DNA from: Squalus acanthias
Lineage: Eukaryota
Direction: 5' to 3'
DNA length: 64,000 bases
Assembly: GCA_030390025.1 (NCBI GenBank)
Contig: CM059431.1
Span: 120,220,001 to 120,284,000, forward strand
Both the position numbers and the translations under genes were made by a program. The notes beneath the pieces are model-generated. The model did not search any database. It saw only the letters and a program-made list of their open reading frames with translations, and was not told the origin of the DNA. Shown piece by piece: positions 6,001-63,700 of this stretch. How positions within the stretch are numbered: position 1 is the first letter of the stretch; each line of letters opens with the position of its first letter.

Positions 6001-6259
6001 TAGCCACTTTGGAGTTTTAATAAATGTTTGTGTAAAGTTTCAATTACTGTGATATAACAGCTAAAAATATTTATTTTCCCCACTCTCATGGACAAATTTG
6101 TGTGCAACATTGGAAGTAGCTTAGTGAGTTGGAGTGAATGGTGAGATATAATGTTCCCTCCAGCAGTGGTGGTCAGTTTGAAAGGAACGCTTTATGGTAT
6201 TGCTGTGGGGTGGTGGGAACCTGGCAAAGCATGTGGCAGTTATATGGTTTTAATGCGTG

Positions 6260-7493
6260 AAGTTAAGTAAATCTGGCCATGATGAGGTCATCCCATGCCT
6301 CCCGGGCAGCAATGTGCTCAGGTGCTGGTGGGATCTGGACCGCAGGTTCCTCCTGATCCTCCTCCTCCTCATCTTCCAGCTGATGGTCCTCTTGCTCCTG
6401 CTCCTCCTCTTCCTCCTCTGAAGATGCTGTGCGCTCAGTGCCTTGCTCTTCATGAAGCGCTAACCCTCACTGCTGTGCTATGTTGTGCAGGGCGCAGCAG
6501 ACCATGAAAATTCTAGATAATATGGCTGGTAAACTCCTCCAGATCTGTCAAGGCATCTGAAGTGCATTTTCAGCATGCCTACTGTCTGCTCTATGACATA
6601 GCTGGTGGAAATGTGGCTTTCATTATATCTCTCCTGGGCCTTAGTACTTGGCCTCCTCAAGGGTGTCATGAGTCACGTCTTCAGTGGATAGCCCTTGTCT
6701 CCAAGCAGCCAGCCGGAAAGTCTGTTTGGAGGAGCGAAGAGCTGAGGGAGGGTGGACTGGCGAAGGACGAAAGAGTCATGGCAGCTGCCAGGGAATTTGG
6801 CGCACACATGCATGATGATCTTCCTATGGTTGCAGACCAGCTGCACATTGAGGGAGTGGAAGCCCTTGCAGTTCACAAACACTCCTGGGTGATGATGGGG
6901 TGCCCTGATGGCCACATGATTGCAGTCGATGATGCCCTGCACTCGTGGGAAGCCAGCCAGAGCAGCAAAGGCCACTCAGTAACACTGGCTTCATCAGTGG
7001 CAAAGTTGATACAATTGGCTGACTTGTCAAAGAGGGCGTCGGTGACCTGAGTGATGCATCGCTGGGTGACCGACTGTTAGATGCCGCAAATGTCTGCTGC
7101 AGATCCCTGGAAGGAGCCTGAGCTGAAGAAGTTGCAGGTGCTGGTGACTTTGACAGCCACTGTCAAGGCGTGTCCACCCGCTCCTCTGGGCTGCAGGTCT
7201 TGCTCCAGTAAGCTGCAAATGTCTGTGACGACCAGGCGTGATAGCCTGAGCCTCCTTTGGCACTGCTGCTCAGTCATGTTGAGGAAGCTCATCCTCTGCC
7301 TGTATACCCTGTGTTGGGGGTATCGCCTCTGGCGTGGTGCAGCCCTGCGCTGATGGCCGCTGTGCTGTGGAGCATCAGGTGGTGGAGGAGAAGGTTGGTG
7401 ATGTTGTTGTTGGTGCTGCTGGTGTGTCTGGTGTTGGGGCTCATCATGGTCCGATTCTGAAGACCAAGGTGAGACAATATAAACGGCACCCAT
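6260..7493 (-). pseudogene. Harbinger (HARBI1-like) DDE transposase, frameshifted
   Basis: [48 protein letters not shown] and IEQTVGMLKMHFRCLD motifs split over several frames. Confidence 0.9.
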
Positions 7494-9339
7494 GCTGATG
7501 TAATAGATGGTAGGTCAAGTAGAGATCAGAGGAGCAATCTGTCATCTGTCAATGGTGTGATAGTTGGTACCAATGAGGTGGCAGTGGATCCCGACTTTGC
7601 TGAAAAGACTTGCAACCTCCAGAAAGCTAAATCTGTGCTGACAATGCAGTCACAAAAGCATCTGCCTTAGGAAAGTACCCAGGTGTCAGGTGAGAGTTTT
7701 TATTGTACTTTTCATGCTGTGCACTAATGAGCTGGATGAATGGCCACTCAACTTTTGCCTCAGGTTCACAGACGTGGTTCCCGAGCTGAGTGATTCCCGT
7801 GCTCATCCACGGAAGTTTGAAAGGTAGGGTTAAAAAGACTCCAAAGGGCCTGACAAGTACCTCACAATCATTTGAATTAGCTCGACCGCCTCTGCCGTTT
7901 GGGTCACTGCCTCACTGGCAAACGCGCCCGAGGGAAAGGTGCATGGGGGCAGGATGATGGTGGGGTCCTGACCTGCTCCAACTTATTTCAAATTTCCCAC
8001 CCGACCTGCCTCCAATCACACCCGCATGGATGCCAGAAAATTCCAGCCAATATCTTTTTGACTAGGCTGATTGCAAGGCATCACAGTTCTCTCATAAGTC
8101 TTACAAGTCTACTGTAGGGTGCAGAGCACATCCCCTCCCTCAAACTATCCAAAGTGCCAGTAGAACTGCTGCTGGCCCAAATCAGGATGAGAAAGGAGGA
8201 CCTGTTTGGGACAGAGAAGAAAAGCAGTAGAAGGGAATTGTAGAACAAGCTGGCCATGGGATCGAGTGTCACCCCGAATGCTCCTTCATGGCTATTCAGT
8301 TCTACAAGACATTTAATGACATTAACAGATCAGAAGGTAAGAAAAGTCATCCACACGTTCCAAGGATGCACAGACTAAACATGTTTGCCACTTACAACCA
8401 CCACCTCCTATGCACCATGTTGAAGTGCTTCAAAAGTTTACCATTAACGTTTCGAAGTTTCTGTGGAGTACTATATACTCCCGATCTTTACCTGTAAGTG
8501 TCCTTCACTCACAATCTGGGAAAGCAGCCCATTAAAAGCACCACACAATATGTGATTGCTTGTTTTAGGCACCTATCATCACTCCATGATTGTTCACCTA
8601 CTGACAAACAGAAAGCATTCTCACTTTTTGCATTCTTCTTAAAGGAGAAGACAGTCTATAGCATTAGAGAGAGATTAACCACAGCTGGTGGTTCCCTCAA
8701 CCTCCAGACTCTCATCTCCCTCTGAGGAGAAAGCCTTGGAGATCCTGGAAAGGCAGATAGGAGAAGGAGTTTCAAATGGGGAAGCTGGATGGCAGGTACG
8801 AACTGGAGGTTTACCATGACATTCTGCTTCTGTTTATTCTCATGCTATTGAACCACGCAAAACCTGACAGCATGCTACCTTGTGAAATTCTCATGTAACT
8901 CCTACTGAAAGCTACATTTGAACTCATAAGCAGGGGATTGCCGACAGTGGAAGATAAGGAGGTAGACGGTGTTGATCTGAGGGTCAGGACATGTCCACCT
9001 CTGCTGAAGAGCCTTGGGACCCATATCTCACAGGTCATGTTTGTAAAAGAAGGGGGTTTTCAGAGCATCAGATGAAAGCACAGGCACTGGCGATGGACTC
9101 CCAGAATGTGCAGCAAATGCCGAGTCAATTGGTGGCAGCTGCGTCACTGTGATGAAGGAGTTTGCATCCCTGTAGCTGATCCTATTGACAAGGCAGCTCC
9201 AGGCCGATCTGCAGCAGAGCGCCAACCCCTCCCGGCAAAGACCCTAAGGACAGTCAGTTTCTGGCAAGTACGTCCAGACTGCTCCCATAGAGGCCTAGGA
9301 ACAAGATTCAAATAGGCTAACCCTTCCAGCTTCCAAGAT

Positions 9340-9478
9340 TCCAAGGAATTATTGGAATTAACGGATATGGGGATAGTGCGACAAGGTGGATTTGAGATGG
9401 AAGATAAGCCATGATCTTATTGAATGGCGGAGCAGGCTCGAGGGGCCAAATGGCCTACTCCTGCTCCTGTTTCTTATA
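9340..9478 (+). mobile_element. CR1/HER1 3' tail fragment
   Basis: cagccatgatcttattgaatggcggagcaggctcgaggggccaaatggcctactcctgctcct-type tail. Confidence 0.75.
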
Positions 9479-10489
9479 TTAATAACTGTATTTTTGGGGG
9501 TTTTGACAGTCTGGAAGTGGGTATTTTGTATAGAATTTTCTTCACCAGTATCAGTTGCCTGGAATTTCCTCAGAGCTGTCATAACTTTGCAGTAAGTCTG
9601 GCAAAAAGCCAGTTTAGGCACATAAGCGGGATTTCTGCCGCACTTCTGGCAAAATTAACGAGCCGGGGCGAGAGCAGCTCTGAGGAAATTCGAGACCATA
9701 ATGAATGAGGCGTGTTGTCCACAATCCACTGTCCACAGTCATGCAGCTAGATTCTCCTATGAATTGCCGCCTGATTTGGGGTAGATTGGGGCATAAAATG
9801 GTGTAAAATACGTTAATGAAGGTTACCACCTCAAAAGTGCCTCTAAAAACTGCACCACTTCAAACTCTCCTGGAAAAATCACCCGTCCTCTTTAAGGGCC
9901 ACCGGAAGCCCAATCAGCTAACTGTAAATGGGGTCACAGGGGCATAGGTAACCCTTCCGACCTATTTTCTCCAACCTCCACCTCAGTAAGGTATCACTGA
10001 GGCAGATTTCACATTCACACAGCCATTTTGTGGGCTGCTACTGAAGGTTAGTGTCTGCATTTTGAACTCGAGTATTTTGGAGGTTTAGTTAAGTCTTTTG
10101 CTGCTAGTTTTACGTCAGAAGGACACCACTTTTGCACCCCTGCCCAAAAAATAAAGTCATAGAAAGTTCAGGCCCTGACAATAAAAGCAGTTTATTTCAA
10201 ATCTGATTAAAAAAAAATTCCCATACTGAAATACATCTATTTCTGATGTAAATTCGATAAGTAGTGGGTGCAGTGTCCTTCCCACCTACCCAATGACGTC
10301 TGTAGAAGGACCGAGCGATTTCTGTGATCGGGGCTCACCTCAATACAGGAGGTCAGCTGCCAGCACGAATCCCTCTGTTTATTGACCGCTCACCATTTGG
10401 GAGGGCAGTAATCCAGTAGGGCAGAGACAGAAGTGGGCCTGTGGCAGCACCTCAGCGGAAAGGGTTAAAAAATAGTCAGAGGGGGGGAA

Positions 10490-29891: not shown

Positions 29892-32800
29892 GGCTGGAAT
29901 TTTTACATTGCAGGGAGTGTGGGTTCGCGAGCGGGTCAGCAGTTAAAAGCACTGAAACTGACAGCGCGTCGGGTACCCACGTTCATCCCACCGACTTCCG
30001 CAATTAACTCGGGCGCGTTTCCCAGTGTGCACAGACTCACTCGAGAGAGGCAGGCAACCTCATTGAAGTAGTTAACGGCTCGTTGCGAGACCCTTAATGT
30101 GAGCTTTCAGCTTTTACTGCTTGTGCATGAGATTCACGGAATTCCTGATGTTCGTCTGTGAAGGCAAGGCGAGAGCTCAGTGGCCATTGTGCGAGTTCAT
30201 TAAGTGACAGCTGGAAAAAGCACATTAATACACACACCTTAAACCTGCTTCCTTGCCTAAGGGAAAGGCTCTTGCCGACACCATTTTGTGCAGAGATTTT
30301 GCTTTCAGGAGTTTGCAGGTGATTTCTGCAGCCTCGGAAGCCACTCTCACTACATTGGAAGTCACTTTCACTACATTAGAGGATTGTGTCTCTGATCTCC
30401 ACTTTACCTGGCATCTATCAGATCAGCATGGGTGCTGCTTATGCTGTTTCACCTTGGACCTCAGATTCTGACCAAGATGAGCCCCAGCACCATCTACACC
30501 AGTAACACCAGCAGCAGCAGCAACAACACCAGCAGCCTTCTCCTCAACCACCTGATGCTCCACAGGAGAGAGGGGAATCAGCACAGGGGTGCACCTCACC
30601 GGCGCGATACCCCCAACACCGGGTATACAGGCAGAGGCTGAGCTTCCTGGATGTAACTGAACAACAGTGTTTCAGGAGGCTCAGGCTATCACGCCAGGTC
30701 ATGGCAGACATTTGTAGCTTGCTGGAAGAAGACCTGCTGCCCAGAGGACCTGGTGGACATGCCTTAAAGTGGTGCTTAATTTCAGCAATGCCCTCAACTT
30801 CTTCACCTCAGGCTCCTTCCAGGGATATTCAGCAGACCTTTGCAAGATCTCGCAGTCGGCTGTCCACAAACGCATCACCAGGTGACCAATGCCATGTTTC
30901 ACTAGTCAGGCACTTATGTGCACTTTGCCACTGATGAAGCCAGTGTTACTGAGCGAGCGCTCGGCTTTACGGCTCTGGCTGGCTTCCCACAGGTGCAGGG
31001 CGTCATCGACTGCACACATGTGGCCATCAAGGCATCACCACATCATCCAGGAGTGGTTGTAACCCCGGAAGGGCTTCCACTCCCTCAATGTGCAGCTCAT
31101 CTGCAACCTCAAAATGATCATCATATATGTGTGTGTCAGATTCCATGGGAGCTGTCATGACTCTTTTGTCCTGTGCCAGTCTATCCTCCCTCAGCTCTTC
31201 GCACCTACAAACAGACAAGGACTATCCACTGAAGAAATGGATGATGACACCCTTGAGGAGGCCAAGCAATGAGGCTGAGGAGCGCTACAATGAAAGCCAC
31301 ATGATGACCAGATGTTTAGCAATTGGCATGCTGAAGATGTGCTTCAGATGCCTTTACAGATCTGGAGGAGCCATTCAGTACGCAGCAGCCAGGGTCTCCA
31401 GAAGGATCGTCGTATGCTGTGCACTGCACAACAGAGCACAGCAGTGAGGATTGGAGCTGCAGGAGGAGCAAGGCACAGAGCGCACAGCCTCTTTGGAGAA
31501 GGAGGAGGAGCAGGTGGAACACGAGGTGGAACATGAGGAGGAGGAGGAGCATGAGATGGACATGGCTCCAGCAGCGGCACACATTGCTGCCCAGGAGGCC
31601 CGGGATGGCCTCATAATGGCACGATTTAATTAAGTTGCACCAGTGCATCCACCTGGCTCCCAGATGCTGTACCAACTTCCCCACCCCCCACCAACACCAC
31701 AAAACAGTCCTAAAATTACCAAACCATTCCTGTCACACACACACCCATTGCTCGAGGTTAAGTAATGTCTCACCATTCACTCCAAGTGACAAGGCCACTT
31801 CCCAGATAGCAGGCAAAAATGGACCAGACGGGAAGGTGATGCAAAGAAATAAATTTATGTGCATCATAAATAGAACTGAAACTTAACACTAACATGTTGG
31901 CAAACATTCATGTGCATACCCTTGTGCATCTGCAATTGTGTCATTTTTCTTCAAGGTGCACCCCCATGTGGCTTCAGTAAAGGTAGAGGCAGGCTTCACA
32001 CTCCCCTGCTCAGACTGCTTAGACACTTTTGGCGGACATCCTCTGGGTTTTGGAGCCTGTGAGGGCCCCGCCAAAGTGCTTTGAGAGCAGCCCCCACTTC
32101 CATGTGCCCTCTCACCATCATTCCTCTCATGGGCCACCCGCACTTTCCTGCTAGCAAGGAGCTGGAGAGCACCTTACAGCACATCAGTGGGGTGATGAAC
32201 GGCCAAGTCTACATTGGTATCCCTTCTAGAGATGAGTTCAATCAGAGTCTGCAAGCTGTTGTTCAGAGCAAGCATGTTCGATTGACTGATGCATTAGCTG
32301 CTCCATGCAGGTGGCCACCCATTACATGGAAGAGCACATCAACGCCATTGCCAGTGATATGGTGCTGCTCACGTTGAAGGTGGACTCCTCCATTCTCTCT
32401 ACAATCGTGCACATCATGGCTGGAAAAGCTGCCAGAGCCTCGCGCATTTGTTGCTACACCTCCAAGGTCAACCTCTTTGTCGACAGCCCCCGAGGTTCAG
32501 CATCTGCATCCAGCTGAACAGAGCTTGGAGTGTTCTGCGCCCTCCGGTGAGGAGTCTCCACTGCTGTCCCTGTCTCCACTAACTGCTCTTGCTCACTTTT
32601 GATGTGTGAGACCCCCAGGTGACAAAACTACTCTCTCGCACAGGACCCACCGACATGAGCATATCTGCACTGATGCTCGGTGCGCTTGGGTCTGCTGACG
32701 GTGCACCCTCAGAGAATGGAGCTTCCTCTGAGGAGCCGTCTTCCTCCTCTGGCTGGACAGCGGCGGGGGTGGGCACTTGATGGGCCTGTAGGAGAGTAAA

Positions 32801-32950: not shown

Positions 32951-33089
32951 TCTGCCCGTCAATTCTTCGTTGGGATGGGCAATAAATGCTGGCCTTGCCA
33001 GTGACGCCCACGTCCCAGGTTCGAATAAAAAAAGGTCACCATTGCAGCAAGGGAATTTCAGACCATAGTTGATTGCCACTGTCACAACA

Positions 33090-33655
33090 ACCACAACAAC
33101 AACTTGTATTTATATAGCACCTTTAACATAGTAAAATGTCCCAAGGCGCTGCACAGGAGTATTTTAAGACAAAAAAATTGATACCGATCCACATAATGAT
33201 AAATTAAGGCAGATGACCAAAAGCTTGGTCAAAGAGGTAGGTTTTAAGGAGCGTCTTAAAGGAGGAAAGAGAGGTAGCGAGGTGGACAGGTTTAGGCAGG
33301 GAATTCCAGAGCTTAGGGCCTAGGCAACAGAAGGCACGGCTACCAATGGTTGAGCGATTATAATCAGGATGCTCAAGAGGGCAGAATTAGAGGAGCGCAG
33401 ATATATCGGGGGGGGTTGTCGGGCTGAAGGAGATTACAGAGATAGGAAGGGGCGAGGCCATGGAGGGATTTGAAAACAAGGATGAGAATTTTGAAATCGA
33501 GGTGCTGCTTAACCGGGAGTCAATGTAGGTCAGTGAGCACAGGGGTGATGGGCGAACGGGACTTGGTGCGAGTTAGGACAAGGGCAGCCGAGTTTTGGAT
33601 GACCTCAAGTTTACGTAGGGTGGAATGTGGGAGGCCAGCCAGGAGTGCGTTGGAA
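33090..33655 (-). mobile_element. L2 LINE 3' fragment
   Basis: SNALLAGLPHSTLRKLEVIQNSAALVLTRTKSRSPITPVLTDLH, with tail gctatataaatacaagttgttgttg. Confidence 0.85.
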
Positions 33656-34480
33656 TCTGGATGTGTCAGCTGTATGCTGCAGGGTAACTGCAAGTGTCCT
33701 TGTGCAGATGGTATAGCTCTGCATCTGCCTCTTTGATGATCTTGTAAGATTCTAAAAAACCATAATAAAAGTGCTGCTACCGTGTGGAGATCGAAATTGC
33801 AAATGAATTGTGAAATGGTAACGGACGGACTCAAAATGAAGGAAGTCAGCATGTGTTCCTTTGTCTGTGAGGACACAAAATGGAGGAAGTCAGCAGGAGG
33901 TCTTTGCCTGTAAGGACTCAAAATGGAGATGCTCAGCATATGGTCCTTTGTTTGTAAGACCACATGGACAGGAAGGAGAAACACCAGATGAAGAGGAAGA
34001 CCCACCCCCACACACATCACAGGACCATGAACGTGTCATGCAGAACGAACTCCAATCAGGGAAGGTTGGGTTTGAAACTGACCTATCAGAGGGAGGTAGC
34101 TGGAGATATATGAGGGGGGCTGGCAGAAAGGTACTATAAAGGGATGACCCAGAAGTGGGAAATTCAGAAGAAGAAGACAACAAGAGGCAAAGAGGGCTGT
34201 TTGAAATGGCAGTCGATGTTTTCAGCCTACTACTTTTTCCGGACTGATCACCCTGGGATAAAAGTATGTATGAAAGTCGGACATAGAGCACAGATATTGC
34301 GAAAGGATACTTTTATGTACGGTTGACTTGGGATATGAATTGACAAGAATTAGTATATAAGTTGCTGGGAAGTACTTTTATGTATGGAACTGTGAGCATA
34401 TGGAGTGCCAAGGATTCGCCTAAATTGCAAGGATACTTTTATGTCCGTTTAGCTCATCTAAGTAGCGTATGAGTTGCTGG

Positions 34481-35928
34481 TGTAATGGAATAAGCCATAT
34501 TCCAAGAAATACATCATCCTATGAACAGATTTTGATATTATTAATATAAGACATGCTGAGTTTAAAAGTCTGGAAAGCCTCGGCGACACAGGCTGCAAAC
34601 ACAATACAGGCTTCTGAGATAAGATGAAGTGTTAACAAAAGCTGTAAAACACCATAGGCTTTGAAATGGGAGATGGTTGTAAGCACAAAAACAATGCCCC
34701 TATTGAAGCAAACCATTGGCGCTTCCAGAAGGTCTGGAGTTTGGGAGAAACACAATGGAATGACCCAAGTAAAGTGTTAAAATCTAACACTTCGAACAAG
34801 AAACACAGAATATTAAAGCAACCATATGCCTTCATAAAGTAACATCAAATAAGACAGGAAGCACAATTAAATATGCAACCAATTTAAATAGCTAAGAAAA
34901 CAAGAAAACACCACAGATGAAGCGTTTTTAATTTACAAGTTGTAAAATATACCTACAGAGAGGCTTTGAAGATATATATCAATAGATGACACCAAGCAAT
35001 TACATTATGTTTGTATTGAACTTGGAACACCACGGAGTCACGATGTCTGGCTTACAAGCAGTTAAGTGATATTAAGAGTTCAATAGAAAGATTTCCTAGG
35101 AATGGCATCAAATAGATAAATCGATAATAACCATAAAAATGATAAGTTTTTGAAACACCTAAAGGTTGAGACAGAATTCTAAAAGTTGGCAGCTGAAATA
35201 ACAGTAAGAATAGAAAAGAATTCAATAAAGAATCACCAGAGATAATTAGCTTACATCAGCAGGAAACTTCAAAGAAAATACCACTAAAAAAAGGTATAAA
35301 AATTGAGCTTTTCAGATAGAGAGTCAGAAGTCGCTGGAAGGGCAAGCGTTTCTCAACTTCACAGGCACTCTCTGTAAGTTTTTAACTCTGAGTCTCGGGT
35401 AATCAAGGTATTTGATTTTGGTGGATATTCTGGATTAAGAAACAAGTAGAAGTGTGGAAATGTAACAAAGTTAAGATTTGAGAATAAGGATCTCTGATAA
35501 GAAATGTAAGCTATTTGTATTTTGAATGGTTAAAGTTGCGATTGCCATACCAGCTGTTAACTAGATGTTGGTTCTTTAATAAATTTATATATTTTTAAAA
35601 TTGTCTCAAAGAGTATTTCTGTATCAATCTTGCAAACTCAATTTCTGTACACTCTTCAGTGAGGAGTTGCAGAATTCTTGGGGGTTTTCCGGACCCTCAT
35701 AATATTCGGAAGGTTACAGTCTAGTTAAACTTGTTAAAAGTGCTATCCGGAGGACGGTAACATCTTCAGGCCATTTCTTTCCTTTAGGGAGAGGTAGTCT
35801 GACCTTTAGACACAATTAAGCATCTCCAGGATTCGGCTACCGCTAACTTTAGTTAAAGGTGAACGTCTGGGGAATACGCCTGATCTGGGGTAGCCCGAAA
35901 AAGGCTAGGACATGTAATTATCCCTTCA
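34481..35928 (+). repeat. 5' LTR (1448 bp)
   Basis: TG..CA, direct repeat of 39828-41262. TATAAAA 35295, AATAAA 35578. Confidence 0.95.
35295..35379 (+). promoter_or_regulatory. LTR TATA box and putative major splice donor in R
   Basis: TATAAAA at 35295-35301 and GTAAGT at 35374-35379. Both are conserved in the 3' LTR. Confidence 0.6.
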
Positions 35929-35930
35929 GT

Positions 35931-35948
35931 TGACGCCCAACGTGTGTG
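35931..35948 (+). promoter_or_regulatory. Primer binding site, tRNA-Lys1,2-like
   Basis: TGACGCCCAACGTGTGTG versus TGGCGCCCAACGTGGGGC (14/18; 13 of first 14), 2 nt after the LTR CA. Confidence 0.85.
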
Positions 35949-36223
35949 TTGATGAGTTGATACAGAACCTATACTTATAGTTATATCTATATCCATCATG
36001 TAGATTGTAAAGTATAGAAGGAGTGTTTACCGACAATGGTACTAAGACCCAGATTTAAGTTTCTAGAGACGACAAGTCCCTGATCAGGCCTTGTAGAACT
36101 TAAATCAGAACTCCCTCAACATACCATTGAGGTCTAGAAATTTCTTATAAAGTTCAGATTAAAACCTAACCGAGGTTCGGTCCTGACGAAATTAAACCCT
36201 AACCGAGGTTAGGTCCTGAAGAA

Positions 36224-36808
36224 ATGGCAAACCCTGTCGGAATTGGCCAAGTCTTTTTAATAGAAAATTTAAACGATTGCTTTATTCAGGGAAATAATCC
36301 TATCCCTGTACCTCCACAAAACCAAGGGATAATTTTTGAAATAGAAGGCTTTGATGCCGAAGAAGCCGTTAGAACTCATGGCATGATTAATGTTGATCCC
36401 CAGAACCAGGGGATACCGAATATCCAGTGGGATACTCAAACAAATACTCCAGATCCAATAAATTCCTTAATGATAAGGTGCACACCTGCACAATTGGGAG
36501 GCCTAATGAATGGTGCCCAACAATGTGGTGGCAACCATGGCCGAATAGCAGGACCCGGAGCAGCCTATGCTCCTGGGGGCCATGGATTCTGGTTAAGGTG
36601 GCAAACTCCTGAAGAAATAAATGTCAAGAATCTTCGAGAAAACTATAGACAGCTTAGAATCCATTATAATAAACGGACCGACAAAACCCCTCAGGGATCT
36701 GGAAAACATGAAACCCCCAAGAGGGAGGAACATAAATCAGTTAAAATAATTAAAGACAAAGAAGCAAATAAAAATCAGGATTCTGAGGATGAACAATCCC
36801 AGGATTGA
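36224..36808 (+). CDS. gag: Truncated foamy-like Gag (N-terminal domain joined to a basic/acidic tail), 194 aa open ORF
   Basis: Gag position after the PBS/leader with a real ATG. DPINSLMIRCTPAQLGGLMN..GPGAAYAPG resembles PFV Gag NPHTMFMISGPLAELQLAFQ..GPLANGHYVQG. Too short to include capsid. Confidence 0.7.
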   Translation: MANPVGIGQVFLIENLNDCFIQGNNPIPVPPQNQGIIFEIEGFDAEEAVRTHGMINVDPQNQGIPNIQWDTQTNTPDPINSLMIRCTPAQLGGLMNGAQQCGGNHGRIAGPGAAYAPGGHGFWLRWQTPEEINVKNLRENYRQLRIHYNKRTDKTPQGSGKHETPKREEHKSVKIIKDKEANKNQDSEDEQSQD

Positions 36809-36817
36809 AGGCCTGGC

Positions 36818-37296
36818 ATGCAGCCAGGGCCTCTTAAATTCCCCTATGCCTTGGCAACCTTGCCCACAAACACACAAGTGAAAGCTCAATTTGTAAAAGA
36901 CCATTAGGGGGATTTACACAAGACAAAACCAAGATAATTAATTTTTACAAAATACCTATTACTATATATGGAATCACAGTGACCCTAGATGTAGGACTGG
37001 TACCACAATTGGCTTATTTCCTCCTTATAGGACAAATAAACATGAAACATTACCTTAAAATATCAACCAGACCAGTACAAGCATCCACATGGATGACAGG
37101 GAAAAACATGTTCGAACACAGCTTGATTGAACTTGCCTAGAGCGGGGAGGCAAAGACCTCCTTGAGCAATTCATTAATAAATACTATCCTTATCTACTAT
37201 GCCATCCAAATCAATGTGGAAAGATAGAGCATCTCCCCATCATGGAGGATGATGATACGGAGGAGGGAATCAGATAAATACCTATGAGACCGCTTA
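36818..37296 (+). pseudogene. pol: Pol protease remnant and start of RT; RT core deleted
   Basis: Manual translation gives MQPGPLKFPYALATLPTNTQVKAQ, YKIPITIYGITVTLDVGLVPQLAYFLLIGQINM (retropepsin C-half) and LLEQFINKYYPYLLCHPNQCGKI (cf. PFV LFVKYDNLWQHWENQVGHR). No DSG/DTG or YxDD seen. Confidence 0.7.
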
Positions 37297-37302
37297 TAGA
37301 AT

Positions 37303-37576
37303 GTGTGGGTTAGGTTGATTTGGCTATGATAAATTGACCCTTAGTGTTAGGGGGGATTAAATATGTGGGGTTATGGGGATAGGATGGGATATGTTAGGGG
37401 GAATTAAATACGTGGGGTTACGGGGGTAGGGTGGGATATGTGTACTGTGGGGATTAAAGCAGGGACAGGGTACTGGATTTGGATGATCAGCCATGATCGT
37501 ATTGAATGGCGGAGCAGGCTCGACGGGCCGAATGGCCTACTCCTGCTCCTAGATTCTATGTTTCTATGTTTCTATG
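37303..37576 (+). mobile_element. 5'-truncated HE1-like SINE inserted in pol
   Basis: Matches 22893-22985 (ggttaggttgatttggctatgataaattgacccttagtgttagggg) plus HER1-type tail (tttctatg)n. TAGAAT flanks both ends. Confidence 0.8.
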
Positions 37577-37578
37577 TA

Positions 37579-37929
37579 GAATACCATCAAGTTATTTACT
37601 GTGATGGAACGTCAATGACGATGAAAAAAGAGACATCCCAACAATCCTCAGCTGGGATAGGGATAGTAGTAGGGACTTTTCGTGATTCCTAATCTTTTTA
37701 TACAGAAGAATTTCTGTCTATACTCCTTGGCCATAAGACAGCGCAATATGCTGAAGCCGCAGCATTACGGTATGCTTTAGAGAAAGCAGACTTTATTAAA
37801 CCCACATTGTGGGAAGAAATTCTTCGTTCGAGGATGGAGAAACAGAATTGTCAGGTGATTCATGTAAACGGGCATACGACTGGAATAGTACACTCAAGAG
37901 GAACAAGCCTTGCTGATGAACAAGCAAAA
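37579..37929 (+). pseudogene. pol: Pol RNase H remnant (foamy-like)
   Basis: VIYCDGTS..SAGIGIVV..*..LLGHKTAQYAEAAALRYALEKA..IHVNGH..HSRGTSLADEQAK versus PFV FYTDGSA..NAGMGIV..PLGNHTAQMAEIAAVEFACKKA..QHEKGH..HTEGNALADKLAT. The central DS segment is missing. Confidence 0.85.
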
Positions 37930-37979
37930 TGTTCAGTCTGCATGATACCCCCTCGAGAGCAGGCCTGCCAATGTTAGTG

Positions 37980-39199
37980 TAATCACTAAGGCAGAACGGG
38001 CAGCTTATCAGGATGAGGAACTGATTCAGCTATTAGAAACAATAAAAGAGAACCACCAGAATATCCACCAAAGTACTTTTACTCGGAAACCCTACGGGTA
38101 TTGTACTAGTTAAGTTGCCCAAGGGAAACCGAGAAGTACCCACGAACCACAAACGAGAACAGCTTGTAAAAGAAGCTCATGAGGGCATAAGTTAAGTACA
38201 TTGTGGTGCCAGAACAACATTCTGCAAATTGACTCTCTTATATTGGTGGCCAGGCATGCTTAGAGCCTGTAAAACAGACATGGCAAATTGTGAGCCATGC
38301 TATTCTACCAATAAGTCATCACTAAATTAAGCCACCACCATTGGCTCCTGTGAAAGCTGATGAGCCAATGGGAAAATTATTTATTGACTTTATTGGACCA
38401 CTTTCCCCATCTTTGCGATATAGACATGTTCTCGTTTGTGTGGATGGATGCATTTCCTTCTGCTGGCTGGTCCCCACAAAAACTGTTTTGGATAACGCAC
38501 TTGCCAGGGCTATTTCTGATATAATTACTGTAGCTGGTGCACCCAAAATCTTACACTCCACTAAAGGCGGAGCCTTTGTATCCAAGGTCTTCAAAGCCTA
38601 CTGTGAACAAAGGAGGATTGGGTTAGAGCACAGCACGCCACATCATCCGCAATCAGCAGGGCTGGTGGAATGTAAAAACCGGGAAGTAATAAAGCTATTG
38701 GTCAAACTGTTGAGAATCAGGGGGAATAAGTGGACCACCATCATTCCGGAAGTACAGCTATCACTCAATAATGTGCCCGCATCTGCATCAGGGACAGTGT
38801 CCCCTAAAACTCCATATTATCTGATGTATGGGGTTGAGATGCATACACCGCTTACCCATAGTTATTTTATTGCCCCTACACACTTTGAGTCCTTGACCCG
38901 ACAGCGACAGTTAGAGAAAAAAGTAACAGAGGAGATTCATTGAATTGATCAGAGGATAATGGAAGCAAATAGGTCGAAAAATTGACAAAAAAAGCATGGC
39001 AACCCATAGTAGAGAATGGATACAGGAAATGAAGTTCGAGCAGAAATCTGGTTTAAGACCGAAGTGGAAAAAACCTGTTCAAATACATTCTGTTATTAAT
39101 GAAAGTACAGTTCAAATACATGTTAACCAACTGAATGGCAAGCATATTCTTAAAACTGTCTCCATAGACAATATCAAAAGATGTCCTGCAGGATACTGA
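37980..39199 (+). pseudogene. pol: Pol integrase (NED, HHCC, core, CTD), frameshifted
   Basis: DEELIQLL..YPPKYFY; AH..H..YWWPGM..CEPC; KLFIDFIGPLSPS..STPHHPQSAGLVECKN; LRPKWKKP..KTVSIDNIK. All parallel PFV integrase. The second catalytic D appears lost (HSTKGG vs HSDQG). Confidence 0.92.
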
Positions 39200-39817
39200 A
39201 AAGGAGGACCAATACAAGGTGCAGTCGTATACTGTCTTTTAAGACCCAGCTTGGAGCACGACACAGGAAATGGATGCGATCGAATTACTGACGATGGGAA
39301 GTCAGAAGATGTCGTCGGCTCTTCTACACGTTGCTTGGCAACGCATCAGGATTTGGATTTGCGAAAAGCAACAACCAAAACAAGGAAAGATCAATAAATT
39401 ACTTTAACGAAGGAGGTAGACGTCGCGGAAGAAGAAGGAATCAACTGAGTGCCTGGCAAGACCTTTACGAAAACAAGCATCTGTACACACGCCGGATCGA
39501 AGGAAAAGCGTGTCAAGCTTCAACTAGTTTCAAATGACGTCTCCTTGACTCGTATGAAGAACTCACCTCTACAGAACGTACATCTGCCAATTGGACATTC
39601 TAAGTACATGTTGTTTCGCTCATTACATGACTATGTACTTATCATCCTTTTAAATTGTGTACAATTTAAAATAAGGCAAAACATTGTCCTAGGATGATTC
39701 AAAAGGAATTTTCATGTAGCACATGATTGTGCATCTCGTGAACTTAATATGCTATTGTAACTTTATGAGTATCATTGACCAAACTCTGCCCTGATGTTAT
39801 AAGCTCATCTTTTGGTC

Positions 39818-39827
39818 AAGAGGGGGG
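39818..39827 (+). promoter_or_regulatory. 3' polypurine tract
   Basis: AAGAGGGGGG directly abutting the TG of the 3' LTR. Confidence 0.85.
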
Positions 39828-41262
39828 TGTAATGGAATAAGCCATATTCCAAGAAATACATCATCCTATGAACAGATTTTGATATTATTAATACATGATA
39901 TACTGGGTTTAAAAGTCTGGAAAGCCTCGGCGACACAGGCTGCAAACACAATACAGGCTTCTGAGATAAGGTGAAGTGTTAACAAAAGCTGTAAAATACC
40001 ACAAGCTTTGAACTGGGAGATGGTTGTAAAGACAAAAACAATGCCCCTATTGAAGCAAACCATTGGCGCTTCCAGAAGGTCTGGAGTTTGGGAGAAACAC
40101 AATGGAATGACCCAAGTAAAGTGTTATAAGCTAACACTTCGAACAAGAAACACAGAACATTAAAACAACCAAAGAAACATCAAATAAGACAGGAAACATG
40201 ATTAAATATGCAACGAATTGAAATAGCTAAGAAAACAAGCAAACACCATAGATGAAGCATTTTTAATTTACAAGTTGTAAAATATACCTACAAAGAGGCT
40301 TTGAAGATATAATACCAATAGATGACACCAAGCAATTACATTGTGTTTGTATTGAACTTGGAACACCACGGAGTCACGATGTCTGGCTTACAAGCAGTTA
40401 AGTGATATTAAGAATTCAATAGAAAGATTTCCTAAGAATGGCATCAAATAGATAAATCGATAATAACCATAAAAATGATAAGTTTTTGAAACACCTAAAG
40501 TTGAGACAGAAATCTAAAAGTTGGCAGCTGAAATAACAGTAAGAATAGAAAAGAATTCAATAATGAATCACCAGAGATAATTAGCTTACATCAGCAGGAA
40601 ACTTCAAAGAAAATACCACTAAAAAAAGGTATAAAAATAGAGCTTTTCAGATAGAGAGTCAGAAGTCGCTGGAAGGGCAAGCGTTTCTCAACTTCACAGG
40701 CACGCTCTGTAAGTCTTTAACTCTGAGTCTCGGGTAATCAAGGTATTTGATTTTGGTGGATATTCTGGATTAAGAAATAAGTAGAAGTGTGGAAATGTAA
40801 CAAAGTTAAGATTTGAGAATAAGTATCTCTGACAAGAAATGTAAGCTATTTGTATTTTGAACGGTTTAAGTTGCAATTGACATAAAGCTGTTAACTAGAT
40901 GTTGGTTCTTTAATAAATTTATATATTTTTAAAATTGTCTCAAAGAGTATTTCTGTATCAATCTCGCAAACTCAATTTCTGTACACTCTTCAGGGAGGAG
41001 TTGCAGAATTCTGGGGGGTTTTCCGGACCCTCATAATATTCGAAAGGTTACAGTCTAGTTAAACTTGTTAAAAGTGCTATCCGGAGGACGGTAACATCTT
41101 CAGGCCATTTCTTTCCTTTAGGGAGAGGTAGTCTGACCTTTAGACACAATTAAGCATCTCTAGGATTCGGCTACCGCTAACTTTAGTTGAAGGTGAACGT
41201 CTGGGGAATACGCCTGATCTGGGGTAGCCCGAAAAGGGCTAGGACTTGTAATTATCCCTTCA
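39828..41262 (+). repeat. 3' LTR (1435 bp)
   Basis: Direct repeat of 34481-35928, 13 nt shorter overall. TATAAAA 40630, AATAAA 40912. Confidence 0.95.
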
Positions 41263-42639
41263 CTGGGAGGTAATTTTATGTACGAAACTGTGAGCATATT
41301 TATTGCCGGAGCGAATTGATACGGTAAATTGCGAGCATATTTATTGCCAGAGCGAATTAACAAACTGTGGGCACAGACATTGCCGAGAGCGAATCTATGT
41401 ACGCTTGAATTTTAAACTGTAGTGTGAATAAAGATAATTTTATATATAACAAACTTATCTGTCATTGTTACGCTTATTCGCAATTCTCGATGTCCAAACA
41501 GTAGTAAGAGAAAGTCCTACAATCTGGACCCTGTGCAGACTGATTTATGCTAGGCAAATGTGCCAGGGCCTGCTGATGTTGTTGGTGGAATCTTGGCAGG
41601 TGTGGTCAATTCAGTGTAAACTTGGTGTTTTTCACCCTGAAATGCCTCTTTAATGAAGTGCCACTGAAAAAAATATGACATACTATGATTGGGGTGCTTT
41701 CGAGGAAGGACTGCATCCAACATAATGGATAGTCAGGCATTCATACATCTTGTCCCTCATCTCCTGTGAACTGAAAGCAGCATCGGATTCGTGGGTCCAG
41801 CTTCCTTTGGGAGGGCCTTTCGTGGGCAGGACAATCGCACAACACAAAATTCACCGCTGTAAAAATGGCAACAGGTGCTTACGTGTCTGGTTGGGGACGC
41901 ATTCCCCATTTCTTTATTTTTAACCCCCTCCCGCCTCCCCCGACCTGCCCCTGCCCACCATGGGGGGGGTGGTGGGGGAGTTAATGTCAAGGCCAATATC
42001 ATTGAAGATCTTTGTATTAATGATTACATTTACTGATGTTAATTCAGCTCCATCAAAAGAGAAGAGAATGTCAAAGTGAATCAAAACTGTTCAGAAGTTT
42101 TGATTTTTTTTTCAAAGGTGTACTGATAAAATTACATATTTAAATAACATGTTAATGTTCATTTTTTCTAAAAAAAAAAGTAAGAATGAGAATGATTGCA
42201 AAACAAAATATGTCCTTTTCAAAAACAAATTGTTTGATTAACATCTACCTTTGATTGAATACTGTGTGTGTGTATGGAATGCAAGTCGTTCAAAATGTTA
42301 TATTTTAGTGCTGTGAAACTCATCAAAATGTTAATGTGTAATATCATTTTTGAAGGCAATCAGTATTATTGTTGGTTGTCTACAATATAATTGCTTCAAC
42401 CAAACTTCATGAGTGAATGGGAATTGTTCACTACTCTTTCCTACATCAGTTACAAACTAAGCCTGACCTTCCATTGTTCCAGGTGATATGAAGCTTTTCC
42501 TACATTTTAGTTAATGAGGGAGTGTGAAGCAGAGTCTTGGGTTTCAATTATAATCCTCCTCGCCCAGCGAGAATGGTGTGTGGTAGAAGATCAGGCCAAA
42601 TCCACTTACTGTCCTGAGGCCACACCGATCCCGCTCGGC

Positions 42640-43050
42640 GACAACAGCCTACATTTATATAACGCATTTGACAAAGCAAAACGTCCCAAGGACCTTAACA
42701 AGAACAATATCAATAAAAAAAATTTGACACCGAGCCACAGAAGGAGATTTCAGGACAAATGACAAAAGCTTGGTCAAAGAGGTAGGTTTTAAGGAGCATC
42801 TTAAAGGAGGAGAGAGAGGTAGAAAGGCAGAGAGGTTTAGGGAGGGAATTCCAGAGCGTAGGGCCAAGGCAGCTGAAGGCACGGCTATCAATGGTGGAGC
42901 GATTAAAATTGAGGATGCACAAGAGGCCAGAATTGGAGGAGTGCAGAGATCTCGAAGGCTTGTAAGAGTGAAGGAGGTTACTGAGATAGGGAGGGGTGAG
43001 GACATGGAGGGATTTGAAAACAAGGATGAGGATTTTACATTTGATTTTAA
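42640..43050 (-). mobile_element. L2 LINE 3' fragment
   Basis: KILILVFKSLHVLTPPYLSNLL..RAFSCLGPTLWNSLP..FKMLLKTYLF. Homologous to 33090-33490. Confidence 0.85.
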
Positions 43051-54829: not shown

Positions 54830-56720
54830 ATGGGGACTCTACTTGTAGTTCCCCTCGCTCTCGAGTATCTTCAGGAGAGGGAGCGGAGGCAGCAAAGAAG
54901 AGGAGAAGATGCGTGCAGAGGGAGGAGGAGGAGGAGGGCTAGGAGAGCTCTCAACAGGAGGCCTTACCCACCTAGGGTCTTCAGAGAGCACTTTTCTTAT
55001 AGCCACTTAAGCGAGGAGCATAGGAACTTAGCAACATAGGAACAGGAGTAGGCCATTTAGCCCCTCGAGCCTGTTCTGCCATTCAATGAGATCATGGCTG
55101 ATCTGCAACCTAACACCATATACCTGCCTTTGGCCCATATCCCTTGATACCTTTGGTTAACAAAATCTATCAATCTCAGATTTAAAATTAACAATTGATC
55201 TAGCATCAATTACCGTTTGCGGAAATGATTTCCAAACTTCTACCACCCTTTCTGTGTAGAAGTGTTTCCTAGTTTCACTCTTGAAAGGCCTGTCTCTAAT
55301 TTTTTACACTATGCCCCCTAGTCCTAGACTTCCCAACGAGCGGAAACAGTTTCTCTCTAACCATCCAATCTGTTCCCCTTAAAATCTTGAAAACTTCGAT
55401 CAAATCACCCCTTAATCTTCTAAATTCCAGGGAATACAACCCTTATTTGTGTAATCTCTGCTTGTAATTTAACCCTTGGAGTCCGAGTATCATTCTGGTA
55501 AACCGACGCTGCACTCCCTCCAATGCCAAAATATCCTTCCTAAGGTGTGATGCCCAGAACTGCTCACAGTACTCCAGGTGTGGTCTAACCAGGGCTTTGT
55601 ATAGCTGCAGCATAACTTCTACCCCCTTGTATACTAGTCCTCAAGATATAAAGGCCAGCATTCCATTAGCCTTTTTGATTATTTTCTGCACCTGTTCATG
55701 ACATTTTCATGACCTATGTACCTAGACCCCCAAGTCTCTTTGGACCTCCACTGTTTTTAGCTTTTCACCATTTAGAAATTACCCCAGTCTATCCTTCAGC
55801 ACTGTATTAAATGGTGGTCTCAGAACTCTGCCACCTCCTGCAGCCTGAGTGCAGGGTGCCCACGGGTATTCCAGTGTCAGTCATCTCTTTGTGGCCCTCA
55901 ATTTCTATGCCAGCAGATCCTTCCAGTCTGCAGCAGGAGACATAGCCAACATCTGACAGTTTGCCATCCATCGCTGCATCCGGGAGGTCACAGAGGTTCT
56001 CTACACCAGCAAAAGGGATTACGTTTTCATCTCTCTGAGCAGAGAGAAGCAGGACGAGCATGCATGTGGCTTTGCCAGTATAGCGGGCTTCCCCATAGTG
56101 CAGGGCGCCATCGACTGCACACACGTGGCTTTGCAGACACTGCATAATAATCCTGAGATCTTCCGTAACTGCAAAGGCTTCCACTCACATAATGTGCAGT
56201 GGTTGTGCGACCATGCCCAGCGATTCCTGATGGTCAATGCCCTCTATCCTGGCAGCAGTCATCCTGCGTCAGTCCGGTGTGCCAACAATTTTCCAGCCAC
56301 CACATCAAACTCAAGGGTGGCTGCACGGAGACAAGGGCTATTCACTCTCCACCTGACTCCCCTCCGCAACCTCACCACTCGTGCGCAGCACTCATATAAT
56401 GAGAGCCGTGCCTCCACCAGGAACATCATCGAGCAGACTATAGGGCTACTGAAGCAACGGTTCTGCTGCCTTGACCGTTCGGGAGGAGCCCTCCAGTACT
56501 CGGTGGAGCGGGTGTCCCATTTCGTCGTGATCTGCTGCATGCTTCACAACGTGGCCATCATGAGGGCACAGCCCTTGCCAACAGGGATGGCGGGACCACC
56601 TCAGGAATGAGGATGAGGGAGAGGAGGAGGAGGAGGAGGAATGGAGCAGGCAGGCAGCCAATCCGCCTTCCGGACGGGCTGTCCGTGAAAGCCTCATCAG
56701 ACTCCGATTCCAATGACTGA
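54830..56720 (+). pseudogene. Harbinger DDE transposase interrupted by CR1
   Basis: MGTLLVVP..RRPYPPRVFREHFSY, then QGAIDCTHVAL..NCKGFHSHNVQ..YNESRASTRNIIEQTIGLLKQRFCCLD..CCMLHN. Confidence 0.88.
55018..55797 (-). mobile_element. CR1 LINE 3' fragment
   Basis: Same antisense CR1 tail and body as 62-830. Confidence 0.85.
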
Positions 56721-60775: not shown

Positions 60776-63700
60776 ACGGTAGCGTACTGGTGATGTCACT
60801 GGGCTAGTAATCCAAAGGCCTGGACTAATGATCCAGAGACGTGAGTTCAAATCCCACCACGGCAACTGGGGAATTTAAATTCAGTTAATTAAATAAAAAT
60901 GGAATAATTACTATTATTAGTAATGGTAACCATGAAACTGTCATAAAATCCCATCAGGTACACTAATGTGCTTTAGGGCAGGAAATCTGCCGTCCTTACC
61001 TCTGTGACTCCAGACCCACAGCAATGTGGTTGACTCTTAACTGCCCTCTGAAATGGCCTACAAGTCACTCAGTTGTAACTAACCGCTGCGAAACATAATA
61101 AGAATGAAACCGGACAAACCACCCGGCATCGACCTCAGCACCGGCTACGGACATGGCAACGGCACACCCAGCCCAGTCGACCCTTCAAAGTCCTCCTCAC
61201 CAACAGCCTGACATAGTCATACTCACAGAATCATACCTTTCAGCCAATGTCCCAAACTCCTCCATCACCATCCCTGGGTATGTCCTGTCCCACCAGCAGG
61301 ACAGACCCACCAGGGTGGGCAGCACAGTGGTATACAGTCGGGAAGGAGTAGCCCTGGAAGTCCTCAACATTGACTCTGGACCGCATGAAGTCTCATGGCT
61401 TCAGGTCAAGCATGGGCAAGGAAACCTCCTGCTGATTACTACCGACCGCCCTCCCTCAGCTGATGAATCAGTACTCCTCCACATTGAACACCACTTGGAA
61501 GAAGCACTGAGAGTAGCAAGGGCATGGAATGTACTCTGGGTGGGAGACTGCAATGTCCATCACCAAGAGTGGCTTGGTAGCACCACTACTGACCGAGCTG
61601 GCCAAGTCCTGAAGGACATAGCTAGTCTGGGCCTGCGACAGGTGGTGAAAGAACCAGCACGAGGGAAAAACATACTTGACCTCGTCCTCACCAATCTACC
61701 TGTCGCAGATGCATCTGTCCATGACAGTATTGGTAGCAGTGACCACCACACAGTCATTGTGGAGACGAAGTCCCGTCTTCACACTGAGGACACCCTTCAT
61801 CGTGTTGTGTGCCACTACCACCGTGCTCAATGGGATAGATTCAGAACAGATTTAGCAGCTCAAAACTGGGCATCCATGTGGGGCAGTAGCAGAATTGTAT
61901 TCCACCACAATCTGTAAACCTCATGGCCCGGCATATCCCTCACTCTACCATTACCACCAACCCTGGTTCAATAAGGAGTGTAGAAGAGCATGCCGGGAGC
62001 AGCACCAGGCGAACCTAAAAATTAGGTGTCAACCTGGGGAAGCTGCAACACAGGACTGCATGCATGCTAAAAAGCAGAAGCAGCATGCCATAGACAGGTC
62101 TAAGCGATCCCACAATCAACACATCAGATCAAAGCTCTGCAGACCTGCCACATCCAGTCATGAATGGTGATGGACCATTAAACAACTAGCGGGGGGGGGG
62201 GGAGAGGAGGAGGCTCCATGAATATTCCCATCCTCAATGATGGTGGAGCCCAGCACGTGAGTGCAAAAGACAAGGCTGAAGCATTTGCAACCAGAAGTGC
62301 CAAGTGGATGATCCATATCGGCCTACTCCTGAGGTCCCCACTATCACATAAGCCAGTCTTCAGCCAATTCGATTCACTCCACGTGATATCAAGAAATGGC
62401 TGAGCGCACTGGATACAGCAAAGGCTATGGGCCCCGACCACATCCCGGCTATCGTGCTGAAGACTTGTGCTCCAGAACTAGCCACACATCTAGCCAAGCT
62501 GTTCCAGTGCAGCTACAACACTGGCATCTATCCGACAATGTGGAAAACGGCCCAGGTATGTCCTGTCCACAAAAAGCAGGACAATGATCGCCCCATTAGT
62601 CTACTCTCAATCATCATCAAAGTGATGGAAGGTGTCATCGACGGCGCTATCAAGTGGCACTTACTCACCAATAACCTGCTCACTGATGCCCAGTTTGGGA
62701 TCCCCCAAGACCACTCGGCTCCCGACCTCATTACAGCCTTGGTCCAAACATGAACAAAGGAGCTAAATTCCAGACGTGAGGTGAGAGTGACTGCCCTTGA
62801 CATCAAGGCAGCATTTGACCAAGTGTGACATCAAGGAGCCCTAGTAAAACTGGATTCAGGGGGAAAACGCTCCGCTGGCTGGAGTCATACCTAGCACAAA
62901 GGAAGATGGTTGTGGTGATTGAAGGTCAATCATCACAGCCCCAGGACATCGCTGCAGGAGTTCCACAAGGCAGTGTCCTAGTCCCAACCATCTTCAGCTG
63001 CTTCATCAATTACCTTCCATTCGCAACTCCTCAGATGATGAAGCAGTCCATGCCCGCATGCAACAAGACCTGGATGACGTTCAGGCTTGAGCTGATAAGT
63101 GGCAGGTAACATTCGCGCCACAGAAGTGCCAGGCAATGACTATTTCCAAAAAGCGAGAGTCTAACCACCTCCCCATGACATTCAACGGCATTACCATCGC
63201 CGAATCCCCCACCATCAACATCCTGGGGGTCACCATTGACCAGAAACTTAACTGGACCAGCCACATCAATACTGTGGCAACAAGAGCAGGTCAGAGGCTA
63301 GGTATTCTGTGGCTAGTGTCTCACCTCCTGACTCCCCAAAGCCTTTCCACCATCTACAAGGCACTAGTAAGGAGTGTGATGGAATACTCTCCACTTGCCT
63401 GGATGAGTGCAGCTGCAACAACACTCAAGAAGCTCGACACCATCCAGAACAAAGCAGCCCGCTTGATTGGCACCCCATCCACCACCTTAAACATTCACTC
63501 CCTCCACCACTGACACACCGTGGCTGCAGTGTACCCTCGACAAGATGCACTGCAGCAACTCGCCAATGCTTCTTCGGCAGCACCTCTTCCACCTTGAAGG
63601 ACAAGGGCAGCAGGCGCATGGGAACACCACCACCTCCAAGTTCCCCTCCAAGTCACACACCATCCTGACTTAGAAGTATATCGCTGATCCTTCATTGTCA

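Follow-up and report, generated by a model that had tools for sequence, protein, structure and literature searches.

Positions 36224–36808 of the forward strand of the window, by which we mean the whole 64,000-nucleotide stretch of DNA that was analysed, hold a real open reading frame (ORF) made up of an ATG, 194 codons and a TGA stop. The tail rich in Lys, Glu and Gln that the preliminary description had reported was confirmed as well, and it is also rich in Asp. Within a 6.8-kb endogenous retrovirus (ERV), whose features and insertion site are listed below, the ORF comes first among the frames.

33741–34480, + strand: left part of a dispersed host repeat, the target of the insertion; uninterrupted copies (L154–L156) span the site.
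34477–34480, + strand: left copy of the 4-bp target site duplication (TSD), CTGG; the empty site has a single CTGG.
34481–35928, + strand: 5′ LTR of about 1.45 kb, TG...CA, with 52 substitutions in 1435 aligned bases relative to the 3′ LTR.
35931–35948, + strand: primer binding site (PBS), which we take to be tRNA-Lys-like; other copies have G at 35933.
36158–36223, + strand: leader segment with a 33-nt unit twice in tandem, directly 5′ of the ATG; a one-copy form is also seen.
36224–36808, + strand: mini-gag ORF, 194 amino acids, an in-frame fusion of Gag 1–149 with about 45 C-terminal residues.
36224–36670, + strand: Gag N-terminal region, a probable foamy N-terminal domain (NtD) head of weak likeness plus about half of a predicted long helix (134–161 in the long form).
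36665–36673, + strand: deletion junction at a short microhomology with an ATAAT core; the 993 nt lost here include capsid and the GR-rich region.
36809–37302, + strand: broken remnant of protease and reverse transcriptase (RT), from comparison with longer copies.
37303–37576, + strand: SINE, presumably HE1-like, inserted in the window copy only (a gap in all sibling alignments); related copies lie elsewhere in the window.
37577–39199, + strand: broken RNase H and integrase, with three stops, six frameshifts and one shared 111-nt deletion.
39200–39817, + strand: fused remnants from both sides of a deleted env; the halves match sequence upstream and downstream of the PF03408 matches in env-bearing relatives.
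39818–39827, + strand: polypurine tract (PPT) with GGG|TG junction, a motif as in foamy-like fish ERVs (available text of PMC5210030).
39828–41262, + strand: 3′ LTR, paired with the 5′ LTR.
41263–41520, + strand: right TSD copy (41263–41266) and right part of the host repeat, from the empty-site comparison.

The two LTRs differ by 3.6%, the substitutions being accompanied by four frameshift-sized indels; the 5′ LTR of the window copy is whole, and the ATG of the ORF stands in a fair context. Relative to longer copies, the window copy has lost about 1.3 kb of RT and some 70 nt that include the protease catalytic motif. Three of the nine stops and frameshifts in its RNase H–integrase region were also found in other copies (in 8, 8 and 4 of 9 copies) and, as they recur in this way, were probably inherited and predate the insertion in the window. 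The open ORF had originally been set against a pol broken in every segment; this contrast is real but was overstated, as integrase is stop-free from 38326 to 38943, which at 205 amino acids is longer than the ORF. An Rfam scan of 33000–43000 gave no match.

Several other repeats were observed in and around the copies. The host repeat at 33741–34480 and 41263–41520 is about 1 kb long with short internal tandem units, and a genome search with it returned 690 candidates, the best 40 of which were scored. The SINE is 98.5% identical to a SINE that sits elsewhere in another copy (L062:3043–3315), and such identity between two differently placed SINEs points to a young SINE family. Taken as HE1-like, the SINE of the window copy also speaks for a shark as the probable host. 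The sibling L040 sits within an array of tandem units of about 40 nt each (L040:1–783 and 7324–9811). Remnants of a DDE_Tnp_4 (Harbinger-type) transposase and of a LINE endonuclease lie at 55957–56610 and 61108–61917 of the window, and old repeat copies form an inverted pair of 2–3 kb (4564–7539 and 30382–32615).

A DNA search of the genome returned 613 candidates; among the best 40, which were scored, 35 covered the full query and five ended at query position 584, where they hold about 1 kb of extra DNA. When this extra DNA was itself used as the query, 203 genome candidates were obtained. Comparison with one real long copy showed that mini-gag lacks 993 nt and that capsid and the GR-rich region are missing, the mini-Gag consisting of residues 1–149 of Gag fused in frame to the last ~45 residues of the 521-residue long Gag. 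The in-frame internal deletion of capsid proposed in the preliminary description was thus borne out, the long sibling carrying the PF20672 capsid.

For identification of the family, profile, structure and protein searches were run with the long copies. Gag_FV_central (PF20672) was found above cut-off at residues 187–348 in all five long frames tested (E 4e-13 to 3e-16), and the long Gag matched the PFV capsid, PDB 5M1H, with E 3.9e-6; these capsid matches upheld the suggested origin of the ORF from a foamy-like Gag. A search of 1.8 billion representative proteins returned seven, all with the capsid domain and feline foamy virus Gag among them. An A9-type protease (PF03539) was detected above cut-off (E 1.1e-6) in one of the two long frames that reach the protease. 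The C terminus of long-copy Gag is GR-rich and without a Cys–His box, the LTR is long, and the GGG|TG junction is present. Word-indexed protein searches with long Gag and with its N-terminal part found no matches; the ESM Atlas gave no usable match for the N-terminal part and only leads under 0.9 for residues 1–360, and metagenome contigs gave no match. A more distant foamy family, sought in the same genome to deepen the alignment, was not found.

Over the genome, PF20672 gave at least 150 matches (150 of 150 scored), and the family comprises at least 150 relatives of the window element. Foamy env (PF03408) gave at least 11 matches, versus the at least 150 for capsid, and four of the five env loci that were fetched share 78–81% DNA identity with the window element; most family copies are without env. 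The distant members that keep env (L142–L152) show 78–90% DNA identity to the window. A lokiretrovirus identity was also considered; lokiretroviruses have an Env like the fusion protein of Mononegavirales and a capsid like that of MLV or Ty3 (available text of PMC7947760), and this identity was not borne out, env and capsid here matching foamy models.

Most copies have gag and pol in one reading frame with a single stop between them (36806–36808 in the window), but among 30 short copies 10 have a sense codon (TGG) in place of the stop, and among 32 long copies 4 have a sense codon there. Folding of a read-through hairpin 3′ of the gag stop was no better than that of shuffled sequences (z −0.7 to −1.2). 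Derivatives of other shapes were also seen: L111, L112, L114, L115, L118, L125, L129, L130 and L137–L141 are without the N-terminal part of gag and keep capsid or just the junction, and contigs from sequencing runs carry still larger deletions, which start at ~36281 or 36339 and extend into RNase H-like sequence.

The ORF itself had no match in Pfam or in PDB sequence searches. Residues ~20–125 had been described as resembling the PFV Gag NtD. In an alignment to 15 further Gags, anchored on capsid, the first 160 residues were collinear; 11 of the 15 have a mammalian-type NtD, and a custom profile of these 11 foamy NtDs scored the ORF at 3.3 bits with the best stretch in register, a score reached by 5 of 1000 shuffles. 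HHalign gave a probability of 0.3% for the ORF against the foamy NtD profile and no significance against single Gag sequences; Pfam and PDB sequence searches gave no match to PF03276 or PDB 4JMR, and PF03276 (Gag N-terminal domain) over the genome gave none, the controls likewise being without match. The proposed resemblance is thus in register but weak, and is missed by the Pfam and PDB sequence searches.

Single-sequence AlphaFold2 prediction was unusable (pLDDT 31.6). In a model of residues 1–360 of a long copy, capsid was confident and the N-terminal part poor (pLDDT 35–50); at this low pLDDT the latter was modelled as a helix, strands, a helix and a long helix (134–161), and the PFV Gag-NtD has the same order of elements with the long helix last (available text of PMC3649970). 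When this model was used for the AlphaFold–Foldseek check that had been suggested, the PFV capsid was matched firmly (E 3e-8) but the PFV NtD 4JMR only at ranks 7–10 (E 0.5–0.75), a result that is partly circular, as foamy rows were in the input alignment. From position and collinearity, the ORF's N-terminal region is probably a foamy Gag NtD of weak likeness, and the deletion cuts its predicted long helix about midway. The GWWGQ targeting signal, already reported as not evident, is absent, its place in the aligned window Gag reading EGFDA. Since teleost foamy-like ERVs are likewise without a GWWGQ-type signal or CTRS in the available text of PMC5210030, this signal is not defining for fish elements.

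The 993-nt deletion was found at 41 loci or more; exact-pattern counts in the genome were 28 for mini junctions and 116 for the long form. Two junction variants of the same length were seen, in 26 and 4 of 30 copies, and the protease deletion is present in some mini copies and absent from others. A tree built from the shared 5′ stretch of 62 copies was star-like, with mini and long copies interleaving and 11 changes between mini and long states, at least three of which are forced by well-supported branches. A single origin of the deletion found no support in this tree, which recombination makes unreliable. DNA runs of four other organisms contain the family in abundance. Mini-junction contigs of depth 4–6 were obtained from three runs of two other organisms, the runs being presumed RNA, and a fourth, borderline junction contig has a 13-nt deletion within the frame. 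The mini junction exists beyond the source genome, but the bridging contigs do not demonstrate expression.

The same internal deletion at many loci, with LTRs, PBS and PPT kept and enzymes lost, fits a non-autonomous ERV deletion derivative. We propose that template switching during reverse transcription produced the 993-nt deletion, the frame of the join being set by the microhomology, for which an in-frame outcome is a one-in-three chance. The deleted RNA, having kept LTRs, PBS, leader and PPT, would have been packaged and copied in trans with proteins of other copies, and the junction could have reached several backgrounds when co-packaged RNAs recombined, or when the deletion recurred at that microhomology. 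Neutral decay after insertion, at about 1.2 disruptions per ORF, would then leave about a quarter to a third of the frames still open, and at the window insertion the 582 bases of the frame would so far have gone unhit.

For assessment of whether the frame is open beyond chance, 41 junction-bearing loci were looked at (30 from the genome DNA search and 11 further). Five of these (L137–L141) were left out because the 5′ part of the ORF could not be aligned, leaving 36 scorable copies; this sample was taken by best BLAST score, which favours intact copies, and a few on small contigs may be duplicates. Ten of the 36 are open, with an ATG and neither stop nor frameshift, where a Poisson fit expects 10.6; five of the ten end at 194 amino acids and one at 189, and four run on, the stop being absent. 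Stops or frameshifts were found in the other 26. The mean is 1.22 disruptions per copy, and the classes with 0 to 4 disruptions hold 10, 14, 7, 4 and 1 copies, against Poisson expectations of 10.6, 13.0, 7.9, 3.2 and 1.0, so that the distribution over the 36 copies shows no excess class of protected mini copies. Codons 1–149 are open in 13 of 30 mini copies versus 12 of 32 long copies. Recurrent stops were seen at codon 138 (five mini and two long copies) and codon 143 (two); these are probably mutation hot spots rather than marks of shared descent.

The probability of an open frame is 0.25–0.26 when calculated from the window LTR pair and 0.11 from the private pol lesions of the window copy (6 in 532 codons). 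Among the explanations first offered for the open frame, openness by chance fits these values and the 10 open siblings. Some points tell against it, the bias of the sample towards intact copies among them. The join keeps the reading frame, and the mini frame has no fixed lesion, while the same lineage shares pol lesions, although about 1.1 fixed lesions are expected at the pol rate and none then has a P of ~0.3. Variants confined to mini copies and present in at least two of them number 11 synonymous, 21 non-synonymous and 2 stops, nominally slightly above the neutral 25%. Contigs from the runs presumed RNA also bridge the mini junction. With an LTR divergence of 3.6%, a 0.6-kb frame should still be open in about one case in four.

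Pairwise pN/pS was 0.91–1.04 among mini copies and 1.6–1.9 for the window copy against 29 others. The comparison of dN/dS across paralogous copies that had been suggested as a check gave a value of about 1, with no constraint. The window copy has 11 private changes (shared with no more than one other among 61 copies), where 10.5 are expected from LTR divergence; all 11 are non-synonymous, which against neutrality has a one-sided P of 0.045 and is unremarkable among 36 copies.

Variants present in four or more copies (shared variants) were taken as change during spread. In the capsid of 53 long copies, shared variants were 23 synonymous to 10 non-synonymous, compared with a ratio of 57:149 among variants of single copies (Fisher P 5e-6). 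Part of this long set was chosen by capsid score; a smaller, DNA-chosen set gave 16:11. Shared variants of long copies were 15:28 over residues 1–160 (P 0.19) and 12:36 over the C-terminal part of Gag, and capsid and N-terminal region differ with P 0.005. For the mini-Gag ORF in 35 mini copies the ratio was 9:31 (P 1.0), and the pattern stayed when CpG-type changes were removed, mini-Gag then giving 4:28. The test has power, with capsid as its positive control, and it detects no constraint on mini-Gag. The earlier proposals that the frame was needed in cis or co-opted find no support in these data and run into the refuting conditions set with them, as 26 of 36 copies carry lesions, dN/dS is near 1, and neither private nor shared variants show a synonymous excess.

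A reading in which mini-Gag, or a mini-Gag–protease read-on product where the stop is missing, aided the packaging or copying of its own RNA in cis during spread, with decay of the copies only after insertion, has in its favour a join that is in frame in all copies, in both same-length junction variants, and the lack of any fixed lesion in the mini frame; the fusion protein of mouse IAP 1-delta-1 offers a precedent (available text of PMC6466679). We regard this as improbable, because the shared variants are neutral while constraint on capsid is detected by the same test, the RNA-binding region is deleted, and the five further junction-bearing loci are unalignable over the 5′ part of the ORF. 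Mini copies are also a minority, about 1 to 4, and the one-in-three chance set by the microhomology suffices for the frame of the join. An open frame needed solely for RNA stability might, for its part, escape the shared-variant test.

It is less probable still, and in our judgement very unlikely, that the locus was co-opted, with the truncated NtD countering related foamy viruses, as a decoy or in a dominant-negative manner, by binding the Env leader peptide or incoming Gag. The open frame, the fair ATG context and the whole 5′ LTR would suit such a role; the lack of any synonymous change among the 11 private ones could point to positive selection, the NtD of PFV binds the Env leader peptide (available text of PMC3649970), and zebrafish Bik-1/2 are a precedent for a multi-copy Gag function (available text of PMC12067270). 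Purifying selection was not found on the frame, however, and one copy with a P of 0.045 among 36 is the chance expectation. At the listed private sites, almost all of the read depth in DNA runs of the four other organisms shows the other base, the element is young by its LTR divergence with normal pol decay, and open frames are not above neutral (10 of 36 against ~25% from LTR divergence). The capsid is gone and the long helix is severed about midway. Fv1-type factors keep the capsid region. A broader version, in which a capsid-less foamy NtD, open at about ten loci, is expressed as an Env-leader decoy or dominant-negative Gag and provides multi-copy restriction against shark-type foamy viruses, is to our minds equally hard to credit. 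If true, co-option would amount to a Gag-derived foamy restriction factor, of which a targeted literature search found none.

We thus consider it highly probable that mini-gag is a foamy-like gag after a 993-nt in-frame deletion, in a non-autonomous ERV subfamily that likely spread via the proteins of other copies, and that its openness is most likely chance. It is best seen as the passenger of a non-autonomous deletion derivative, co-option and a need in cis being unsupported, and any protein made from it would be without the capsid, the RNA-binding regions and roughly half the predicted dimer helix. The ORF is ordinary; the better lead is the family-level pattern of env loss, constrained capsid, relaxed Env-binding region and gag–pol in one frame. 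Judged from sequence, the Env-binding domain of the long copies may have been released from constraint after env loss, and env loss with capsid constraint and no Env-binding constraint is the prediction for a foamy virus turned intracellular retrotransposon.

Among known systems, the gecko ERV-Spuma env, zebrafish Bik-1/2 Gag and Fv1 are similarly open retroviral frames in defective elements, but mini-Gag is without the marks of these co-opted genes. According to the available texts, the gecko env has kept its orthology for 96 My, at a dN/dS of 0.14 (PMC6669660), and Bik Gag keeps its capsid and is expressed (PMC12067270). As an internally deleted, probably trans-amplified derivative, the window element is like mouse IAP 1-delta-1, ETn, VL30 and MaLR. 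The deletion of IAP 1-delta-1 creates an open fusion frame whose protein acts in cis (available text of PMC6466679), whereas the shared variants of mini-Gag give no sign of constraint. No description of the deletion subfamily was found in the literature searched, which was mainly open-access; the available parts of bioRxiv 2021.11.23.469661 and bioRxiv 2020.12.18.423569 also belong to this comparison.

The family is like foamy viruses (PFV, feline foamy virus) in the capsid of its long siblings (PF20672; 5M1H, 8OZK), the A9-type protease and the GR-rich C terminus without a Cys–His box, and a few more distant copies have foamy env (PF03408). It is unlike them in its ~20% identity and in having no Gag_spuma_N match and no GWWGQ, and the window copy is also missing env, capsid and the greater part of RT. 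The layout of gag and pol, a single frame interrupted by one stop, sets the family apart from mammalian foamy viruses, in which Pol comes from a spliced mRNA (available text of PMC7828637). The GGG|TG PPT junction and the lack of a CTRS are shared with the foamy-like ERVs of fish and sharks (CmiFLERV, teleost FLERVs and ERV-Spuma.0-Sca; available text of PMC5210030). Published cartilaginous-fish elements comprise, in the available descriptions, pol only in the ghostshark and a catshark element without detected Gag or Env domains (PMC5512871, PMC10699275). By these descriptions the present family is set apart, as its Gag, protease and Env all match foamy Pfam models, although the catshark element (available text of PMC10699275) may belong to the same family. 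What the window element represents is thus a shark foamy-like ERV family with recognisable foamy capsid, protease and env.
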